Assembly (NCBI GenBank): GCA_045544235.1
Contig: JAZPYQ010000001.1
Location: forward strand, 1-24,000
Length of the DNA: 24,000 nucleotides
Source of the DNA: Agathobacter sp.
GTDB taxonomy: Bacteria; Bacillota; Clostridia; Lachnospirales; Lachnospiraceae
Direction of reading: 5' to 3'
Below the pieces are notes generated by a model, which ran no database searches, was not told the origin of the DNA, and was given only the letters and a program-made list of their open reading frames with translations. Position numbers and translations under genes: made by a program. How positions within the stretch are numbered: position 1 is the stretch's first letter; the number at the start of each line of letters is the position of its first letter. Below are positions 1,269 to 9,901 of this stretch, piece after piece.

Positions 1269-1321
1269 TGAGATGGAAAGAAGTAAGCTCTGAAATAGCA
1301 AAAAAGAATATTGAAGTTTGT

Positions 1322-1360
1322 AAAGAGGTTGTCCGCGAGGGCAACCTCTTTGATTTATTT
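1322..1360 (+). terminator. intrinsic-terminator-like hairpin
   Basis: AAAGAGGTTG (1322..1331) pairs with CAACCTCTTT (1342..1351). The stem extends by U.G, C-G and C-G pairs to a GCGA tetraloop (1335..1338) and is followed by the T-rich GATTTATTT. It lies inside track ORF 1259..1450, which argues that the ORF is not real. Confidence 0.55.
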
Positions 1361-1417: not shown

Positions 1418-1446
1418 TTGACTTTTGTTAAGTTGTGGATTATAGT
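1418..1446 (+). promoter_or_regulatory. sigma-A-type promoter of the fic-hsd operon
   Basis: TTGACT (1418..1423), a 17-nt spacer, then TATAGT (1441..1446). This is 58 nt upstream of the Fic ATG. Confidence 0.6.
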
Positions 1447-1503: not shown

Positions 1504-2565
1504 ATGAGAGAATTTGATTACGGAAAAAAATGGAAAAAATTACTAACACCAGAAATTGTTGGTTATCTTACAACAATTCATGAATATAAAGGAGAGCAGC
1601 GCTTAATAGCAGAGCGCCATGCGGATGTATTAGAAAGTCTTGTTGAAGTAGCAAAGATTCAAAGTACAGAGAGTTCTAATAAAATTGAGGGTATTTATAC
1701 ATCTGATGAGCGATTGAAGAAGATCGTTTTGGATAAGACAATGCCAAGGACAAGAAACGAGAGAGAAATTGCGGGATATAGAGATGTGTTAAATACAGTG
1801 CATGAGAATTTCAATCATATTCCGATTCGTGATACTTTCATATTACAACTTCACAGAGATTTGTATAAATTTGAAAATGCTACTGATGGTGGAAAGTTCA
1901 AAAACGTTGATAATGTGATAGAGGAAGAAGATGCAAAAGGTAATAAATTTGTTAGATTCAAACCGTTGCCAGCATGGGAAACACCAGAGGCAATAATGAA
2001 TCTATGTGCTGCATATAATGAGGCTATTAATAGAAGTGAGGCAGATCCGTTACTGATTATACCGATGTTCATAATAGATTTTCTGTGTATTCATCCGTTT
2101 AAGGATGGTAATGGGAGAATGAGCAGATTATTGACCTTGTTATTGCTCTATCAAAATGGCTACATTGTAGGAAAATATATCAGTTTGGAAAAATTGATAG
2201 AGCGTACAAAGGATAATTACTATGATGCTTTGCAGGAGAGTTCTCAAGGTTGGATGGAAGACAAAAACGATTATGAATCATTTGTTAAATATATTCTTGG
2301 GATTATTACAGCAGCATATAGAGAGTTCTTTGATAGAGTGCAGATTGTTGAGGAAAAGAAAGTGTCTAAGCCTGATAGAATTGAGGAATTAATCAAGAAT
2401 CATTTAGGTACTATTACTAAGTCTGAAATTGTTGAAGCAACACCGGGAATTAGTACCACAACAGTTCAGAGAACATTAACTGATTTGGTAAAAGCCGAGA
2501 AGATAATCAAGATTGGAAATGGACGCTATACAAAATATAAATGGAACTGGGATAAGGAGAATTAG
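1504..2565 (+). CDS. Fic/DOC-family protein (Fic_N + Fic + C-terminal winged HTH; SoFic-like, class II auto-inhibited AMPylase type)
   Basis: Catalytic motif HPFKDGNGRMSR matches HxFx(D/E)GNGRxxR. The N-terminal inhibitory motif SNKIEG matches (S/T)xxxE(G/N). The C-terminal ITKSEIVEATPGISTTTVQRTLTDLVKAEKIIKIGNGRYTKY is wHTH-like. A GAGGT ribosome-binding site lies 8 nt upstream. Confidence 0.9.
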   Translation: MREFDYGKKWKKLLTPEIVGYLTTIHEYKGEQRLIAERHADVLESLVEVAKIQSTESSNKIEGIYTSDERLKKIVLDKTMPRTRNEREIAGYRDVLNTVHENFNHIPIRDTFILQLHRDLYKFENATDGGKFKNVDNVIEEEDAKGNKFVRFKPLPAWETPEAIMNLCAAYNEAINRSEADPLLIIPMFIIDFLCIHPFKDGNGRMSRLLTLLLLYQNGYIVGKYISLEKLIERTKDNYYDALQESSQGWMEDKNDYESFVKYILGIITAAYREFFDRVQIVEEKKVSKPDRIEELIKNHLGTITKSEIVEATPGISTTTVQRTLTDLVKAEKIIKIGNGRYTKYKWNWDKEN

Positions 2566-2568
2566 AAA

Positions 2569-4065
2569 ATGATTACAGGTGACTTAAAAAATAAAATTGA
2601 TAGTTTGTGGGATATCTTTTATACAGGTGGCCTTACAAATCCGTTGGATGTTATTGAGCAAATGACTTATCTTATGTTTATTCATGATTTAGATGTATCA
2701 GATAATATACATGCGAAAGAAAGTGCAATGCTGGGACTTCCTTATGAAAGTGTTTTTTCAAAGGAAGTAAAAATCGGAGAAAGAGTTATTGATGGTACAC
2801 AGCTTAAGTGGTCTGTATTTAGAGATTACCCTGCAGACAGAATGTATTCAGTGGTTCAGGAAATGGTATTTCCATTTATAAAGAATTTGCATGCAAATAA
2901 GGACAGTGCTTTTTCCAAGTATATGGATGATGCAATTTTTAAACTTCCAACACCACTTATGCTTTCAAAGGTTGTTGATGCAATGGATGAGATTTATGCG
3001 CAAATCGCAAAATTGAGTGATTCTGACGGCAAAGGCGATGTATATGAATACTTGCTTTCAAAAATTTCAACAGCCGGAGTAAATGGTCAGTTTAGAACAC
3101 CACGTCACATTATTAAAATGATGGTAGAACTTATGGACCCTAAAGCTGATGATGTAATCTGCGATCCTAGCTGTGGTACAGCGGGATTTCTTGTAGAGGC
3201 CGGAGAGTACTTGTGGAACAACAAGAAAGAAGAGATTTTTTATGACAAGAAGAAAAAAGAACATTTTATGAATCACATGTTCCATGGTTTTGATATGGAC
3301 AGAACGATGCTTCGTATTGGCGCTATGAATATGATGAATCATAGAGTGGAGAGCCCGTTTATCGAATACAGAGATAGTTTATCTGACCAGAATCCAGATA
3401 AGGATAAGTACTCATTAATTCTTGCAAATCCACCTTTTAAGGGAAGTTTGGATGCTGATATTGTATCTGCGGATTTGCTTAAAGTATGCAACACAAAGAA
3501 GACGGAGCTTCTTTTCCTTGCGTTATTTGTTCGTATGCTTAAAGTTGGTGGACGCTGTGCTTGTATCGTTCCGGATGGAGTATTGTTTGGTTCGTCTAAA
3601 GCACATAAGGATATTCGAAAAGAATTAATTGAAAATCAGAGATTGGAAGCAGTTATTTCCATGCCTTCAGGTGTGTTCAAGCCATATGCAGGAGTTTCTA
3701 CGGGAATTCTTATCTTTACAAAGACAAATTATGGTGGAACAGATAATGTATGGTTCTACGATATGCAGGCCGATGGATACAGTTTGGATGATAAACGTTC
3801 AGCTGTAACGGAAAATGATATTCCTGATATCATTGAACGATTCCGTAATCGTGATGCAGAGATAGATAGAAAGAGAACAGATAAGTCATTTATGGTGGCT
3901 AAGCAGGAAATTGTAGATAATGATTATGATTTATCTATTAACAAGTATAAGAAGGTTGAGTATGTTGCAGTAGAGTATCCACCTACATCTGAGATTATAG
4001 ATAGAATCATGGAATTGGATGCAGAAGCTACAGAGGCAATAAAAGAGTTGAAGAAAATGTTATAG
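2569..4065 (+). CDS. hsdM: Type I restriction-modification N6-adenine DNA methyltransferase subunit M
   Basis: 498 aa. AdoMet motif I is DPSCGTAGFL and catalytic motif IV is NPPF (ILANPPFKG). The N-terminal region is HsdM_N-like. The start is 3 nt after the Fic stop, with an AAGGAGA ribosome-binding site. Confidence 0.93.
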   Translation: MITGDLKNKIDSLWDIFYTGGLTNPLDVIEQMTYLMFIHDLDVSDNIHAKESAMLGLPYESVFSKEVKIGERVIDGTQLKWSVFRDYPADRMYSVVQEMVFPFIKNLHANKDSAFSKYMDDAIFKLPTPLMLSKVVDAMDEIYAQIAKLSDSDGKGDVYEYLLSKISTAGVNGQFRTPRHIIKMMVELMDPKADDVICDPSCGTAGFLVEAGEYLWNNKKEEIFYDKKKKEHFMNHMFHGFDMDRTMLRIGAMNMMNHRVESPFIEYRDSLSDQNPDKDKYSLILANPPFKGSLDADIVSADLLKVCNTKKTELLFLALFVRMLKVGGRCACIVPDGVLFGSSKAHKDIRKELIENQRLEAVISMPSGVFKPYAGVSTGILIFTKTNYGGTDNVWFYDMQADGYSLDDKRSAVTENDIPDIIERFRNRDAEIDRKRTDKSFMVAKQEIVDNDYDLSINKYKKVEYVAVEYPPTSEIIDRIMELDAEATEAIKELKKML

Positions 4066-4077
4066 GGGGACTAATCC

Positions 4078-4824
4078 ATGAAAGGTATAGATTTAGTAAA
4101 CCATCCAAATTTCGCAGGGAGAAAAGAGGATCTCGATCCAAACCAACCTGGACTGTTGAAGATTACAAAGAAACATGAAGAAAAGAAGAAAACGGGTAAT
4201 GCTTTTGAAAAATATGTGTCATCACAGATTAGGAATGCTTTTACAGATGCAATTTTATTGGATGATGTCTATTTTGAGACTGGAGTATATAACACAAAAT
4301 TGTGTATGTATGAATCTATGCAGATAGATCATATTTTGATTACCTCAAAAGGTGTTTTGGTTTTGGAGGATAAATATATTGATGATGAAAAATATTTAAG
4401 TGTATCAGGTGGAGCGTTATCTAAAACTTGGTTACTCAAAAAGCGATTTGGAAGTATATCTGAGACTAATGGTTTAAAGCAGAATTATCGACATATGCAA
4501 TTTATCAAGGAAATACTAAATTATATTGGATTAGATATACCTGTTCTTCAAATGACTGTAATTGGTGGAATTGTTCGTGATAAAATAAGAGTGCAACAAT
4601 TTATCGATGCAAATCTAGTTACTGAAGAGGAGGCTATTGATCGAATAGTATATTTATTGAAAAGGCAAGCTAACATGGATGTTTCAACACAGAAGGTATT
4701 GGAAGAATTAAGTAAGTGGATTTGCACGGTACCGGATATTGAGAAATCACATATTGCGTTTGTTCGAAACAAGGAAAAGAATAGATTGCCTGCACGATGT
4801 AAAAAGGTAATGAGAAAATTGTAG
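4078..4824 (+). CDS. NERD (nuclease-related domain) protein embedded between hsdM and hsdS
   Basis: 248 aa. The NERD-like layout is GNAFEKYVSSQI ... QIDHILITSKGVLVLEDKY, i.e. D...E-x-K PD-(D/E)xK-like residues. There is a 12-nt gap after hsdM and a GGGGGA ribosome-binding site. Confidence 0.75.
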   Translation: MKGIDLVNHPNFAGRKEDLDPNQPGLLKITKKHEEKKKTGNAFEKYVSSQIRNAFTDAILLDDVYFETGVYNTKLCMYESMQIDHILITSKGVLVLEDKYIDDEKYLSVSGGALSKTWLLKKRFGSISETNGLKQNYRHMQFIKEILNYIGLDIPVLQMTVIGGIVRDKIRVQQFIDANLVTEEEAIDRIVYLLKRQANMDVSTQKVLEELSKWICTVPDIEKSHIAFVRNKEKNRLPARCKKVMRKL

Positions 4825-4867
4825 AAAGGAATAATAAATCAAATTCGGATTTGTAGGGATGATATAA

Positions 4868-6043
4868 ATGCAAAAAACATTTGATGAAGTTGTGATATTT
4901 GCAAGAACAGGATTAAATCCAAGACAAAATTTTAAGCTTGGACAAGGAAATAATGCATACATAACTATAAAAAATATTAAAAATAATAAGCTTGTTATAG
5001 ATGATAATACAGATGTTGTAGATGATGATGCAATCAGGTTAATTCATAGGCGTTCTCAGATTAAAAAAGGAGATATTCTATTCGCATCTATAGGTAGAAT
5101 GGGAGATATGTTTATTATTGAAGATGAGCCTGATGGGTGGGATATTAATGAATCTGTTTTTGCTTTCACACTAGATACGAATATAATCAGACAAAAATAC
5201 TTTTATTACATTTTTAAAGTAAAATCTACTTTGGATTATTTGTCATCAAATAGTTCAGGAAGTACTTTTAAAAGTATCAAGATGAATCAGCTAAAAAAAA
5301 TGGTGTTTGATATACCGTCTTTAGAGGTTCAAGACCAGATTATAAGAGGATTGGATAAAGTAAGTAATATCATTGAATTAAGAAAAATGGAATTGCAAAA
5401 TCTAGACAATCTCATCAAAGCCCGATTTGTCGAACTGTTTGGTAGTATGGAAAGTAAAATTCCTATTAGTGAAATGTGTAATGTTACTGGGGGATATTCA
5501 TTCAAGAGTGGTGACATTTCTGACGATGGCGCAATAAAGATTTTGCAGATAGGAAATGTGTATTTAGACAATGTGAGTTGGGAAACAACCAATTATTTGC
5601 CTGAAGGATTTGACGAAAAATATTCCAAATTTATGTTAGATGAAGGCGATATTGTTGTCGCTCTAACCCGTCCAATAATCCAATCATTAGGAAATGTAAA
5701 GGCTTGTATTGTTAAATCAAGTGATTTGCCTTGCCTTTTAAATCAACGAGTTGGTAGAATTGTTGCGAAAAAAGAAAAATCAGTTTTTCTTGAGTTTATT
5801 TATGGTTGCTTAATGACAGATGATTTTACAAGATATGTTGAGTCTTGCAGTATTGGATGTTCGCAACCTAATATAAGCACAAAAGATATTGAGAACTATT
5901 TAATTCCAAATGCTACATACGAAGAACAAAAGGCATATGTGGAATTTAAGAAACAGACCGACAAATCAAAATTTGCGGTACAGAAATCACTTGAAGAAGC
6001 ACAACTTTTGTTTAATAGCTTAATGCAGAAATATTTTGGATAG
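4868..6043 (+). CDS. hsdS: Type I restriction-modification specificity subunit S (two target-recognition domains)
   Basis: 391 aa with two TRD-like halves. They are separated by a conserved central helix (LQNLDNLIKARFVELFG), and the protein ends in the matching C-terminal helix (EEAQLLFNSLMQKYFG). Confidence 0.9.
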   Translation: MQKTFDEVVIFARTGLNPRQNFKLGQGNNAYITIKNIKNNKLVIDDNTDVVDDDAIRLIHRRSQIKKGDILFASIGRMGDMFIIEDEPDGWDINESVFAFTLDTNIIRQKYFYYIFKVKSTLDYLSSNSSGSTFKSIKMNQLKKMVFDIPSLEVQDQIIRGLDKVSNIIELRKMELQNLDNLIKARFVELFGSMESKIPISEMCNVTGGYSFKSGDISDDGAIKILQIGNVYLDNVSWETTNYLPEGFDEKYSKFMLDEGDIVVALTRPIIQSLGNVKACIVKSSDLPCLLNQRVGRIVAKKEKSVFLEFIYGCLMTDDFTRYVESCSIGCSQPNISTKDIENYLIPNATYEEQKAYVEFKKQTDKSKFAVQKSLEEAQLLFNSLMQKYFG

Positions 6044-6056
6044 GAGGGAGTAAACA

Positions 6057-6581
6057 ATGAGCTTGTCTGTAGATAATTTGGCTGAAAAAGCATTTGATAA
6101 TTTTAAGAAGATAACACCTGCACTGGTAGCAATTGCTTTATTGACAGGTATGCTCTTATTTCTTCCGGACAGCATATTGAGAAAGATGTATTTAGACAAT
6201 CTTCCAGTGCTTTGGAGCAGGATTATTGGGATTGCATTTTTGTTGAGTGTGGCTCTGATAGGAACTATTGGAGTTTCGTCTGCTATTTCATACATAACCT
6301 CGAAAAGGCGCAATAAGAGAATACGAGAAAATTTGAAGAAAAAGTTAAAGATACTAAGTCCACAACAAAGAAGTATTATTTTGAAGGTATTAAGGAGTAA
6401 AGAAAAATCAATTTCATTAGACAAGAACTCTGGTGATACAGTATATCTTGTGAATAATATGTTCTTGTATATGCCACAACAAGTATTAACACTAGGATGG
6501 GACAATGAAATGATTTTAACATATGTTCCCCACCCTTGGTTATTAGATTTGTATAACGAAGAACCTGAGTTGTTTATATGA
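6057..6581 (+). CDS. small 2-TM membrane protein, tentatively SieB-like (superinfection exclusion)
   Basis: 174 aa. Two hydrophobic helices (ITPALVAIALLTGMLLFLP and IIGIAFLLSVALIGTIGVSSAISYI) are followed by a basic stretch (KRRNKRIRENLKKKLK) and a soluble tail (LSPQQRSIILKVL...). There is a GGAGGGA ribosome-binding site. The stop overlaps an ATG of the hsdR frame (ATGA at 6578..6581). The SieB resemblance is from memory and was not searched. Confidence 0.7.
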   Translation: MSLSVDNLAEKAFDNFKKITPALVAIALLTGMLLFLPDSILRKMYLDNLPVLWSRIIGIAFLLSVALIGTIGVSSAISYITSKRRNKRIRENLKKKLKILSPQQRSIILKVLRSKEKSISLDKNSGDTVYLVNNMFLYMPQQVLTLGWDNEMILTYVPHPWLLDLYNEEPELFI

Positions 6582-6595
6582 GAAATGAGGGTATT

Positions 6596-9500
6596 ATGAC
6601 AAATTTTGATTATCTAAAGAAAGAGCCAAAATTTAATAGTTTTTCAGATGTAGCAATAGCCGCGGAGAAGATTCTTAAGATTGATATGGAATCTAGTGTG
6701 ATTAACTGCCGTCGTGCAATGGAGTTCGCAATAAAATGGATGTACTCTGTGGACAAGTCGTTAGAGATGCCATATCAGGATAATTTGATAAGTCTTATGA
6801 GTACAGAAGCGTTTCATGATCTTGTAGATGATGCTTTGTGGAAACGTCTTGATTTAATTCGTAAGATTGGTAACCGAGCTGCACATAACGGAAGAAAGAT
6901 AACAGAGGATGAAGCTATTTTATGCTTACAGAATTTGTTTATCTTTATGGATTATGTGTCATATTGCTATTCTGATTATTACGAAGAACGACAATATGAT
7001 GTGAGCTTATTGACTGAGACTCATAAGGAAACTACTGCAGTAAAATCTTCAGATGATGATGTGAATTTGCAAGCGTTAATTGCAGAGAATAAAGCCCTTA
7101 AAGAAGAACTTACAGCAAAACGTGCAGAACAGCAGCAGACATATGTTCCAAAGCCCCTTGATTTATCAGAGTATAAGACAAGAAAAATCTACATTGATGC
7201 TATGCTTTTAGATGCTGGCTGGACAGAAGGAAAAGATTGGATTAACGAGGTCGAACTTCCGGGTATGCCTAATAAATCAGAAGTGGGATTTGCAGATTAT
7301 GTTCTTTATGACGATAGTCATAGACCACTTGCTGTTGTAGAAGCAAAGAGAACTTGTGTAGATGTTGCCAAAGGAAGACAGCAGGCGAAACTATATGCTG
7401 ATTTGCTTGAAGCACAGTATAAGAGAAGACCGGTAGTATTTCTTACTAACGGTTTTGAAACAAGAATTATTGATAACCAGTATCCGGAGAGAAAGGTTGC
7501 TGTTATTTACTCTAAAAGAGATTTAGAGAAGCTTTTTAATCTTCAGACAATGAAGACAAGTCTTAACCATATCTCTGTAGATAAGGAAATTGCAGGTCGT
7601 TATTATCAGGAAGGTGCTATCAAGGCTGTATGTGATGCGTTTGATAATCGCAATCGTAGAAAGGCACTTCTTGTTATGGCTACCGGTTCCGGAAAAACAA
7701 GAACTGTTATAGCATTATGCAAAGTTCTTTTAGATGCAGGATGGGTTAAGAATATATTGTTCCTTGCGGATCGTAATTCGTTAGTTACACAGGCAAAAAG
7801 AAATTTTGTGAATCTTTTGCCTGATTTGTCATGTTCGAATCTTGTGGAAGAAAAAGATAATTATACTGCACATTGTATTTTTTCTACATATCAGACCATG
7901 ATGAACTGTATCGATTCTGTTAAGGATGACAATGGTAAGCTATTTACTTGTGGTCATTTTGACCTTGTTATCTGTGATGAAGCACATAGATCAATTTATA
8001 ACAAATATAGAGATATATTTAATTATTTTGACGCTCCGCTAGTGGGGCTTACGGCAACGCCTAAGGATGAGATTGATAAGAATACTTATGGAATATTTGA
8101 TTTAGAAAATGGTGTGCCTACTTATGGATATGAGTTAGCGCAAGCTGTAAAGGATGGTTATCTTGTAGACTTTACTACGGTTGAAACAAAACTGAAATTC
8201 ATAGAAGAAGGTATTGCTTACGACGAGTTGTCAGAAGAAGATAAGGCAGCTTATGAAGAAACTTTTGAATTTGAAGATGGAGAATTGCCAGAGAGAATAA
8301 ATTCGTCCGCTTTAAATACATGGATTTTTAATGAGGATACAATTAAACAAGTTCTTCATGTCTTTATGCGGGATGGTCTTAAGGTGGACTATGGGCAGAA
8401 AATAGGTAAGACGATTATCTTTGCCAAGAATCATGACCATGCAGAGAAGATTTTGGAGATATTTAATAAGCAGTATCCAGAATTGAGTAAAAATGGACAG
8501 CCGTTTGCAAAGGTTATAGATAACTATATGACATATGCACAGAGTGCAATTGATGAATTTTCTGATCCAAAGAAAATGCCTCAGATTGCGATTTCGGTTG
8601 ACATGCTTGATACGGGTATTGATGTACCGGAAGTGTTGAATCTTGTGTTTTTTAAGAAGGTTATGAGCAAAGCTAAGTTCTGGCAGATGATTGGTCGTGG
8701 TACCAGACTTTGTCCAGGTCTTATGGATGGAGAAGATAAAGGAAAATTCTATATTTTTGATTTCTGTGGTAACTTCGAATTTTTCCGTATGAATCAAGGA
8801 AGACCTACGGCTAATATGATTGCTCTTCAGGGAGCTATTTTCTCTCTCAAATTCGAAATAGCATATAAGCTTCAGAGTATTGAGTATCAGATTGACAGAC
8901 TTATTGCATACAGAAAGAAGCTTGTTGAAATGATGTCCGGCAAGGTGCAGGAGTTGAATCGTGAAAACTTTGCAGTAAGGCAACATCTTAAGTATGTAGA
9001 CACTTATTCTGTCGAGGCGAATTATCAATCGATTACCTTTGAAGATACTTTGATGGTTCGAGAAGAATTAGCACCGCTTATTATGCCTGATGGGGATGAA
9101 GCAAGCGCGGTTCGTTTTGATGCTTTGATGTATGGAATGGAATTGATATTTTTAGCGGGAAAAGGATATGGTAGACACAGAAGTGACCTTTTTAAAAAGG
9201 TGGAAGGAATTTCCAGTGTTGCCAATATTCCTGAAATACAGATGCAGTCAGAACTTATTAATAAGATTTTGCATACAGACTATGTAGATAATGCCGGAAT
9301 TGATGAGTTCGAGCATATCAGAGTAAGTCTGCGTAATCTGATGAAGTACCTTCCAAAAGGTATCATCAAGTACGATACAGATTTCACAGATGAGATTTTG
9401 TCTACAGAGTGGAATGATTCTGAACTTGAAAATGATGAATTAAAGAACTATAAGGCAAAGGCTGAGTTCTATATTCGTCAGCATCAAAATAATATTGCAA

Positions 9501-9901
9501 TTGCTAAACTTAAGACCAATCAGCCATTGACGGAGACAGATGTTAAAACTCTGGAACAGATTCTTTGGAAGGAAGTTGGGTCTAAAGATGATTATGAAAA
9601 GGAATACGGTCATAAACCATTGGGAGAGTTCGTTCGAGAGATTGTGGGACTGGATATGAATGCTGCAAAAGAAGCTTTCTCAGAGTTCCTTAATGATACA
9701 AATCTTGATAGTAGACAGATTTACTTTGTGAATCAGATTGTTGAGTATATTGTACACAATGGTATGATGAAGGATTTATCAGTGTTACAAGAATCACCAT
9801 TTATTGATAAGGGTAGTGTGGTAGAGATATTCACTGACTTGACAGTATGGATGGGAATCAGGAAGGTTATTGATAGGATTAATGCAAATGCGGCAGCGTA
9901 G
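6596..9901 (+). CDS. hsdR: Type I restriction endonuclease subunit R (DUF4145-like N-terminus, PD-(D/E)xK nuclease, SF2 DEAH motor, EcoEI_R_C-like tail)
   Basis: The nuclease motif is FADYVLY...VVEAKR. The helicase motifs are MATGSGKTRT (I), VICDEAHRS (II), LTATP (III) and QMIGRGTR (VI). I prefer the ATG at 6596 (MTNFDYL..., GAGGG ribosome-binding site 6 nt upstream) over the track start at 6578. Confidence 0.93.
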   Translation: MTNFDYLKKEPKFNSFSDVAIAAEKILKIDMESSVINCRRAMEFAIKWMYSVDKSLEMPYQDNLISLMSTEAFHDLVDDALWKRLDLIRKIGNRAAHNGRKITEDEAILCLQNLFIFMDYVSYCYSDYYEERQYDVSLLTETHKETTAVKSSDDDVNLQALIAENKALKEELTAKRAEQQQTYVPKPLDLSEYKTRKIYIDAMLLDAGWTEGKDWINEVELPGMPNKSEVGFADYVLYDDSHRPLAVVEAKRTCVDVAKGRQQAKLYADLLEAQYKRRPVVFLTNGFETRIIDNQYPERKVAVIYSKRDLEKLFNLQTMKTSLNHISVDKEIAGRYYQEGAIKAVCDAFDNRNRRKALLVMATGSGKTRTVIALCKVLLDAGWVKNILFLADRNSLVTQAKRNFVNLLPDLSCSNLVEEKDNYTAHCIFSTYQTMMNCIDSVKDDNGKLFTCGHFDLVICDEAHRSIYNKYRDIFNYFDAPLVGLTATPKDEIDKNTYGIFDLENGVPTYGYELAQAVKDGYLVDFTTVETKLKFIEEGIAYDELSEEDKAAYEETFEFEDGELPERINSSALNTWIFNEDTIKQVLHVFMRDGLKVDYGQKIGKTIIFAKNHDHAEKILEIFNKQYPELSKNGQPFAKVIDNYMTYAQSAIDEFSDPKKMPQIAISVDMLDTGIDVPEVLNLVFFKKVMSKAKFWQMIGRGTRLCPGLMDGEDKGKFYIFDFCGNFEFFRMNQGRPTANMIALQGAIFSLKFEIAYKLQSIEYQIDRLIAYRKKLVEMMSGKVQELNRENFAVRQHLKYVDTYSVEANYQSITFEDTLMVREELAPLIMPDGDEASAVRFDALMYGMELIFLAGKGYGRHRSDLFKKVEGISSVANIPEIQMQSELINKILHTDYVDNAGIDEFEHIRVSLRNLMKYLPKGIIKYDTDFTDEILSTEWNDSELENDELKNYKAKAEFYIRQHQNNIAIAKLKTNQPLTETDVKTLEQILWKEVGSKDDYEKEYGHKPLGEFVREIVGLDMNAAKEAFSEFLNDTNLDSRQIYFVNQIVEYIVHNGMMKDLSVLQESPFIDKGSVVEIFTDLTVWMGIRKVIDRINANAAA

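Follow-up and report, generated by a model that had tools for sequence, protein, structure and literature searches.

A NERD gene between hsdM and hsdS

The stretch analysed here, 24,000 nt of Agathobacter sp. (contig JAZPYQ010000001.1, positions 1 to 24,000; hereafter the window), contains a type I restriction-modification (R-M) operon in which a gene for a protein with a NERD domain lies between hsdM and hsdS. The apparent operon consists of six closely spaced genes in the order Fic, hsdM, NERD, hsdS, SieB-like and hsdR. The NERD gene (4078..4824, +) is an open reading frame (ORF) of 248 aa with an ATG start, separated by 12 nt from the hsdM stop and by 43 nt from hsdS, and a GGGGGA Shine-Dalgarno sequence lies upstream of its ATG within the 12-nt gap. 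The protein matched the Pfam NERD model PF08378 with E 1.3e-12 and 48.6 bits (gathering score 22.1 bits), the match covering residues 40-159 of the protein and model positions 2-107 of 111. The first-pass annotation of this DNA had reported a 248-aa NERD ORF between hsdM and hsdS, which the ORF list and the Pfam matches bear out, and had staked this assignment beforehand on profile searches placing the protein in NERD, as they did. It had further deduced stoichiometric co-expression with hsdM and hsdS from the position of the gene, which over-reads the two intergenic gaps, since the genes do not overlap and thus support neither translational coupling nor a fixed stoichiometry.

The 5’ boundary of the operon is marked by a strong terminator-like hairpin of 14 pairs followed by a T-run (1321..1352, +), which closes the upstream unit. 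The best promoter-like site, TTGACT-17-TATAGT (1418..1446, +), lies 58 nt upstream of the Fic gene and is a candidate operon promoter, judged from its consensus match (10/12). The first gene encodes a 353-aa Fic-domain protein with a C-terminal winged helix-turn-helix (1504..2565, +; PADLOC SoFic E 3.6e-43) and is followed by hsdM (2569..4065, +; 498 aa; N6_Mtase E 1.3e-63, PADLOC MTase_I E 3.3e-182). Downstream of the NERD gene lie hsdS (4868..6043, +; Methylase_S E 1.1e-28), encoding 391 aa with two target-recognition domains, a SieB-like gene of 174 aa (6057..6581, +; PF14163, superinfection exclusion protein B, E 1.6e-16) and hsdR (6578..9901, +; 1107 aa), whose product matches EcoEI_R_C and resembles EcoAI/EcoEI, i.e., is type IB-like; the stop codon of the SieB-like gene overlaps the hsdR start (ATGA). 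Between position 1352 and the operon end, terminator-like sites do not exceed 5 stem pairs, and the three minimal 5-pair hairpins found inside the array do not exceed the expectation from shuffled sequence, which makes it plausible that the NERD gene is co-transcribed with the R-M genes.

Conservation and predicted fold of the NERD protein

Clustering at 90% identity yielded 28 clusters of close homologues, with 46-97% identity to the window protein, here called the narrow family. Together with dN/dS ratios (nonsynonymous to synonymous substitutions) below 1 and a confident AlphaFold model (mean predicted local distance difference test, pLDDT, 92.1), these clusters argue that the ORF is a real gene and not a chance reading frame. 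When 1.84 billion representatives were searched exhaustively with a profile, 505 proteins reached E <= 1e-3 but only 20 reached E <= 1e-30, and by these numbers the narrow family makes up a small subfamily of the extensive NERD family.

The protein begins with an N-terminal extension (residues 1-39; 4078..4194, +) carrying the pattern NHPN..R..DLDPxQxGL, which is kept within the narrow family, followed by the NERD core (residues 40-159; 4195..4554, +) as delimited by Pfam, alignments and the AlphaFold model, and by a C-terminal extension (residues 160-248; 4555..4821, +) comprising strand 4, short strands, four helices and a basic tail. The core runs from helix 1 (with G40 and E44) through three strands bearing the catalytic signature D84 ... 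E97-x-K99 (4327..4374, +, defined by alignments), a beta insert and helix 2, which carries N131-G-L-K-Q135-N136 and H139; the signature lies within QIDHILITSKGVLVLEDKY (residues 82-100, nt 4321-4377). Across 24 family members, G40, E44, D84, E97, K99, N131-G-x-K-Q-N136 and H139 were invariant, as were W214, C216, H225 and C241 in the C-terminal extension. In a wide alignment of 30 sequences (A2: the window protein and 29 representatives at 22-47% identity to it), D84 and E97 remained invariant, and G40, E44, K99, W118, N131, Q135, N136, H139 and H225 were conserved at >=90%. All 30 of these sequences matched Pfam NERD, and two of them have a zinc ribbon of the topoisomerase type at the C-terminus.

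Specific to the narrow family are W214, C216 and C241 together with the LPxRCKK tail, in which R240, K242 and K243 are at least 90% conserved, whereas distant relatives have other basic tails or the zinc ribbon in place of this tail. Small stand-alone NERD proteins (PF08378; Grynberg & Godzik 2004) have the same E...D...ExK core and NxxQN..H helix, and share with the window protein a length of 200-280 aa and a C-terminal helical extension with the histidine and a basic or zinc-ribbon end. They differ in their N-terminus: many distant NERD proteins start with a hydrophobic or transmembrane helix, where the narrow family has its soluble conserved extension instead. The C-terminal tail of the window protein, KEKNRLPARCKKVMRKL (residues 232-248), is strongly basic, with 9 K/R against 1 D/E in the last 19 residues, and the full-length protein has an isoelectric point of 9.1. 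Such a tail would fit nucleic-acid binding, and the zinc ribbon of distant relatives occupies the same position; C216, H225 and C241 might form a zinc site, two members of which, C216 and C241, are conserved only within the narrow family.

AlphaFold2 with the family alignment returned one compact body with pLDDT 92.1 and a predicted template modelling score (pTM) of 0.89. Its secondary structure elements (H31-54, E59-72, E77-88, E93-100, H132-150, E156-163) place E44 on helix 31-54, D84 on strand 77-88 and E97-x-K99 on strand 93-100, and the resulting alpha-beta-beta-beta-alpha-beta order is, in the model, that of the restriction-endonuclease core. Foldseek matches to the PDB were weak (best E 6.6e-3) and all to PD-(D/E)xK nucleases, namely the R2 RLE domain, AF1548, Can2, McrC, VC1899, Cdn1 and Hjc, while among the viral models of BFVD the top match was a phage ‘Nuclease-related domain protein’ (E 2e-6, 211 columns). 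A PDB sequence search with the family profile returned only noise (FEZ-1 beta-lactamase, E 0.16).

We also considered whether the C-terminal region is an independent domain and rejected this. More distant NERD proteins of 200-280 aa align through approximately residue 235 and have H225 too, and residues 174-248, when modelled by themselves from the family alignment, reached only pLDDT 69 and pTM 0.45 with altered secondary structure. Given these results and the single compact full-length model, we regard the C-terminal extension as an integral part of the fold. Three claims of the first-pass annotation are thus upheld, i.e., the intact D...E-x-K core, which is kept down to 22% identity, the very basic C-terminal tail, and the assignment to PD-(D/E)xK-type NERD proteins, for which Pfam, alignments and the Foldseek and BFVD matches agree. 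Its picture of an unrecognised C-terminal region of ~110 aa has to be revised, as the part outside the Pfam match comprises 89 aa (160-248), in addition to 39 aa at the N-terminus, and is no novel domain of its own: it aligns with other NERD proteins and folds poorly alone.

The NERD gene as an optional component of the operon

To separate core components from cargo, we examined four hsdM clusters at 83-89% identity to the window hsdM, picked regardless of NERD and representing 11 places. The NERD gene was absent from all 11. In most of them (L014/15, L016, L018, L020-23) hsdS follows hsdM directly at a distance of 24-42 nt, two (L017, L019) have DUF3791/DUF3990 genes after hsdM, and one (L013) has an unrelated 246-aa ORF, which we excluded as a divergent NERD protein (BLASTP E 0.89, no similarity). 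More than 8000 hsdM clusters were found at E < 1e-100, against 28 NERD clusters. The hsdM-hsdS spacer of NERD-less operons is homologous to the NERD-hsdS spacer, as the leader motif upstream of hsdS (described below) confirms; for example, AAAGGAAAAGCAAATTGAGATTTGTxGGGGA of a NERD-less spacer matches AAAGGAATAATAAATCAAATTCGGATTTGTAGGGA of the window. This homology implies that the NERD gene and its own ribosome-binding site form a cassette placed between the end of hsdM and the hsdS leader; neither direct repeats nor target duplications were detected around the gene. An obligatory fourth Hsd subunit can be rejected, because the gene is absent from close hsd operons and is also found without hsd genes (see below): NERD is optional cargo and not part of the core of the restriction system.

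The NERD gene also evolves differently from its neighbours. Compared with the window, identities of hsdM, hsdR and NERD were 94%, 95% and 75% at L001, 87%, 82% and 50% at L008, and 79%, 81% and 53% at L024, respectively. By the Nei-Gojobori method, dN/dS of NERD was 0.13-0.25, with 0.55 for L001/L012 as the closest pair and all values below 1, compared with 0.02-0.05 for hsdM and hsdR. NERD is therefore under purifying selection and changes 3-14x faster by dN/dS than hsdM and hsdR, which fits a protein engaged in an arms race, or merely a less constrained one.

Genomic contexts of NERD relatives

Relatives of the NERD gene were found both embedded in hsd operons and in other settings. Embedded copies occur in Fic-hsdM-NERD-hsdS...hsdR operons at L001-4 (75% identity to the window protein), in uncultured Eubacterium sp. 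from the human gut (L012/L031, 76%), at L030 and L032-35 (72-79%), and, more distantly, at L024/25 (53%) and L008/9 (50%). At L030-L034, all with at least 72% identity, NERD lies between hsdM and hsdS, and the flank retained at L035 shows only hsdS. A scan of a genome collection found a single locus, in uncultured Eubacterium sp. UMGS965. At L008, an extra 87-aa Cys-rich ORF (5322-5585, +), absent from the window, is located between NERD and hsdS.

About half of the NERD lineages are not embedded; their loci are devoid of hsd genes within 6-10 kb, and their proteins share 46-51% identity with the window protein. These free genes are located behind the gene for a HATPase_c_3 protein of 700 aa, where the island also has PLD and helicase genes (L005-7), near GmrSD_N and AAA_15/21 (L010), near AAA_15 and DUF4435 (L011), adjoining AAA_21 and RloB (L026/27), or behind a RelB/ParE pair, the variable island there holding a PLD-type nuclease, HamA and a DEAD helicase, a HEPN_Swt1-like protein and an integrase (L028, L037-47). 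Their islands thus include Hachiman-like, PARIS-like, GmrSD-like, PLD-nuclease and toxin-antitoxin (TA) genes. Across the contexts examined, no partner gene was conserved, and the ATPases near some relatives are already paired with Toprim partners (DUF4435 or RloB). Likewise, no feature in the family alignment separates embedded from free members, and in a neighbour-joining tree the two kinds interleave, the embedded P0019 being sister to the island-borne P0016, which indicates that embedding was gained or lost within the family.

In phage and plasmid collections, tblastn detected only marginal matches to parts of NERD, which covered 28% and 56% at 24-34% identity and give no clear sign that the family is carried by phages or plasmids; as far as sampled, it is a narrow family restricted to human-gut Firmicute metagenomes. 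As a side observation, free NERD genes of the P0022 type always have an overlapping RelB-antitoxin/ParE-toxin gene pair (98 and 104 aa) ~140 nt upstream (L037/L038/L040/L042-L044, e.g., L037 5185-5785). Beyond this RelB/ParE-NERD unit the flanks vary, holding a PLD nuclease, Hachiman-like HamA plus helicase, or an integrase, and the region may be a defence hot spot.

Interpretation and alternative explanations

Taking Pfam match, catalytic signature and modelled fold together, the protein is a member of the NERD family, predicted to be a soluble single-domain PD-(D/E)xK phosphodiesterase with a putative role in defence. Being nested in a defence system, with homologues in defence contexts, it also belongs by its genomic setting to the ‘guilt-by-embedding’ class of genes (see below). 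We consider it probable that the gene encodes an optional, self-contained accessory defence nuclease, which occupies a recombination-prone cargo slot of the R-M operon and is co-transcribed with it, yet works independently of Hsd. That a defence effector is the most reasonable reading, as the first-pass annotation had suggested, follows from the position in an R-M operon and from the defence islands of the relatives; a special functional tie to HsdM and HsdS is not supported, given the 11 NERD-less places, the roughly half of lineages outside hsd operons and the interleaved tree. The host, a human-gut Firmicute, would have an operon of the form Fic-hsdM-[slot]-hsdS-[slot]-hsdR in which the gene fills the slot directly behind the hsdM stop codon, and its product would act as a second-layer effector apart from the Hsd complex, presumably by metal-dependent cleavage of nucleic acid at the D-ExK site, with the basic C-terminal tail possibly helping to bind the substrate. 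DNA is the more likely substrate, considering the topoisomerase-type zinc ribbons of relatives and the usual interpretation of NERD as a DNase of the restriction endonuclease (REase) type; RNA is possible, as ZwsA, a NERD protein, is reported to cleave RNA. Self-damage would presumably be avoided by substrate selectivity or auto-inhibition, since no antitoxin-like partner is conserved beside the NERD gene.

Several points weigh against an accessory defence nuclease of this kind. Both the nuclease activity and the phage defence of this NERD family are predictions, the protein has no matching model in PADLOC-DB 2.0, NCBIfam or PHROGs, and every structural match to a solved nuclease has an E value above 1e-3. 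Furthermore, an unregulated stand-alone nuclease without a visible inhibitor is mechanistically awkward, and the gene recurs at an identical position in three deep lineages (NERD 50-53%, hsdM 79-87%), which could mean a link to HsdM. The arrangement as such is less surprising, given that defence genes inside type I R-M operons are already documented.

A link to HsdM would be explained if the NERD protein were a guardian comparable to PrrC, held inactive by HsdM2S or the full Hsd complex and freed once a phage anti-restriction protein (Ocr, ArdA or Stp type) has put the type I enzyme out of action, whereupon the unleashed nuclease would cause abortive infection by cleaving DNA or RNA. PrrC, embedded in EcoprrI and activated by T4 Stp, provides the precedent (PMC12707154; PMC3710099). 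The constant location of the gene agrees with such a role: it begins 12-22 nt past the end of hsdM in the three deep lineages, and each of the six loci with at least 72% identity and a retained flank (L030-L035; at L035 the flank shows only hsdS) has it in this slot. The fast amino-acid change of NERD beside slow hsdM and hsdR would fit engagement with phage factors, and the lack of a dedicated antitoxin in embedded copies would be accounted for. However, the free lineages keep all conserved motifs and extensions in the absence of hsd genes and cannot be told from embedded members by sequence, the embedded P0019 groups with the island member P0016, and the four related hsdM clusters do without NERD throughout. 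We therefore regard a guardian as unlikely, and equally doubtful is its specific form, in which a protein of a fold unrelated to PrrC docks on HsdM/HsdS via, for example, the N-terminal extension or the basic C-terminus with its Cys and His residues and turns into an indiscriminate nuclease once an anti-restriction protein of a phage distorts or sequesters the type I complex; the free island relatives would then have to watch over different partners or respond to this phage factor themselves.

Alternatively, the protein could be a complementary restriction enzyme of the type IV or II kind, which cuts invader DNA escaping the type I system, e.g., modified DNA, in parallel to the GmrSD-like TgvAB and BrxU inside type I R-M or BREX loci. 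Embedded R-M and BREX genes that were tested often encode modification-dependent nucleases (PMC11411939; PMC12707154), restriction enzymes classically have the PD-(D/E)xK fold, DNA binding is suggested by the basic tail and by the topoisomerase-type zinc ribbon of relatives, and no antitoxin would be needed if host DNA were not a substrate. Nevertheless, NERD is the sole Pfam match of the protein, in which no reader of modified bases (SRA, EVE, YTH or winged helix) could be recognised, the stand-alone copies lack a cognate methyltransferase, and one characterised NERD effector cleaves RNA, so that we judge this reading to be distinctly unlikely. A selfish homing-type endonuclease, or a passenger outside defence, e.g., in DNA repair, is the least probable of the explanations and would come as a real surprise. 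Free-standing endonuclease genes inserted between conserved genes are exemplified by the seg and mob genes of T4, and the NERD gene resembles these in its polymorphic presence at a precise site among operons that are 83-94% identical, its clean boundaries and its own ribosome-binding site. On the other hand, flanking repeats or target duplications were not found, the slot holds unrelated genes elsewhere, which makes the site and not the gene the hot spot, and lasting purifying selection over deep divergence is atypical of the decay cycles of homing endonucleases. The housekeeping genes ruvAB, LMWPc and BPL, which some relatives adjoin and which might suggest a passenger, are located at the edges of variable islands with TA, Hachiman-like and PLD-nuclease genes.

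Comparison with known systems

Payne et al. 2024 formalised ‘guilt-by-embedding’ and reported that type I R-M systems often hold embedded genes, which mostly belong to neither the mobilome nor housekeeping functions and of which more than half are without assignment (10.1101/2024.01.29.577857). Tested examples of defence systems in this position are TgvAB in the type I R-M system of V. cholerae VPI-2 (PMC11411939) and DarTG2 in the type I R-M operon of the RRDM island of enteropathogenic E. coli (EPEC; PMC12255303). As proposed for the window gene, both are independent modules inside a type I R-M operon and broaden protection; they are, however, two-gene systems of the GmrSD-like or TA kind, and DarTG2 lies between hsdS and hsdR, whereas the window holds a single NERD gene for a predicted nuclease between hsdM and hsdS.

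NERD domains themselves have been connected with defence before: the NERD-REase is present in PglW and DndF, it has been suggested that stand-alone NERD REases bordering Dnd loci serve Dnd and BREX as backup effectors, and for HEC-02 a defence function was demonstrated by experiment (10.1101/2024.01.29.577857). HEC-02B is likewise a NERD protein with a (D/E/Q)xK motif embedded in a multi-gene defence system, but HEC-02 comprises two genes, one for an ABC ATPase, and is embedded in Hma, in contrast to the partner-less NERD gene of a type I R-M operon described here. Searching PADLOC, HEC-02B model included, with the window protein gave no match at E <= 0.01, and at a limit of 10 only the unrelated PDC-M13C (E 0.023). 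With neither an HEC-02B match nor an adjacent ATPase in the window, membership in HEC-02 was rejected.

PrrC/EcoprrI offers a similar arrangement, in that a nuclease gene is nested among type IC hsd genes, is co-expressed with them and serves as a second line of defence. PrrC, however, combines an ABC ATPase with a HEPN tRNA nuclease, is unrelated in fold, is physically masked by EcoprrI, and occurs almost exclusively embedded in type I R-M loci, compared with only about half of the lineages in the window NERD family. Despite the embedding, we therefore did not assign the window protein to PrrC, as it has neither an ATPase nor a HEPN match. A further counterpart is ZwsA (Zowangsin) of P. aeruginosa, a stand-alone NERD effector that requires its E/D/E-x-K residues (bioRxiv 10.64898/2026.04.06.716636). 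It differs in being a large protein with VHS, DUF647, NERD and S4 domains, an RNA endonuclease targeting the genomes of RNA phages, whereas the window protein consists of NERD only and has 248 aa.

If validated, the protein would rank among the smallest NERD defence effectors encoded by a single gene, absent from current defence-finder models (PADLOC-DB 2.0, NCBIfam), and would add to the catalogue of type I R-M cargo in abundant human-gut Firmicutes, which are hard to transform and are targets of phage-based microbiome editing. Since it is already known both that defence genes can be embedded and that NERD can serve as a nuclease in defence, the gain would be incremental unless a PrrC-like coupling were shown; a small partner-less NERD effector would be an addition to the known embedded-cargo pattern and an expected example of it.

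Further features of the operon family

The SieB-like gene of the window is a second embedded gene, located in the hsdS-hsdR slot, which in related operons holds an integrase and a second hsdS, DUF3644/EC042_2821, a HAD-like gene or small ORFs. hsdS is 25-41% identical between related operons, as is typical for hsdS, and is preceded by a conserved leader motif forming a small palindrome, AAATTCGGATTTGT (4841..4854, +), upstream of which the NERD gene is inserted. In most loci of the operon family this 14-nt motif, AAATTNRGATTTGT, lies 10-25 nt upstream of the hsdS start, and it lies farther upstream where more cargo follows (L008, L017/L019). An inverted copy is located inside the 3’ end of hsdS (window 5961-5974, -), L001 has copies at 4320-4333 (+), 5483-5496 (-), 6579-6592 (+) and 7705-7718 (-), and the motif was also found in L014, L016 and others, including second copies behind an integrase. 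Two matches in the window alone are not significant, as 10 of 100 shuffled sequences reach two; it is the recurrence across loci that stands out. The motif brackets the hsdS cassette and could act in recombination that shuffles hsdS, or else as a regulatory leader. With its two interchangeable slots and the hsdS-flanking motif, the Fic-hsdM-slot-hsdS-slot-HEPN-hsdR family is a compact natural system in which to study the swapping of defence genes into R-M loci.

The HEPN element of this family refers to an N-terminal DUF4145 in HsdR (residues ~29-119, E 1.1e-15). DUF4145 has been assigned to the HEPN (RNase) superfamily and occurs fused to REase and superfamily 2 (SF2) helicase modules (PMC3710099), so that HsdR may carry a backup RNase module of its own, as judged from the domain match. 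Fic is the first gene of every operon seen in this family, ending 0-6 nt before hsdM; its product in the window scores below the NCBIfam SoFic cut-off. Its identity to related operons is mosaic, with 83% at L008, 89% at L030 and 64% at L001, the hsdM genes of L030 and L001 being 93-94% identical to that of the window.

Additional defence genes border several of the related operons. CBASS-like SMODS and E2/ThiF genes follow hsdR at L014 (15411-17033), a Hachiman-like pair of HamA and helicase lies upstream of the operon at L013 (4369-7521), and at L016-L019 (1-7955) a type III-A CRISPR-Cas system with Csm6 is located directly upstream of Fic.

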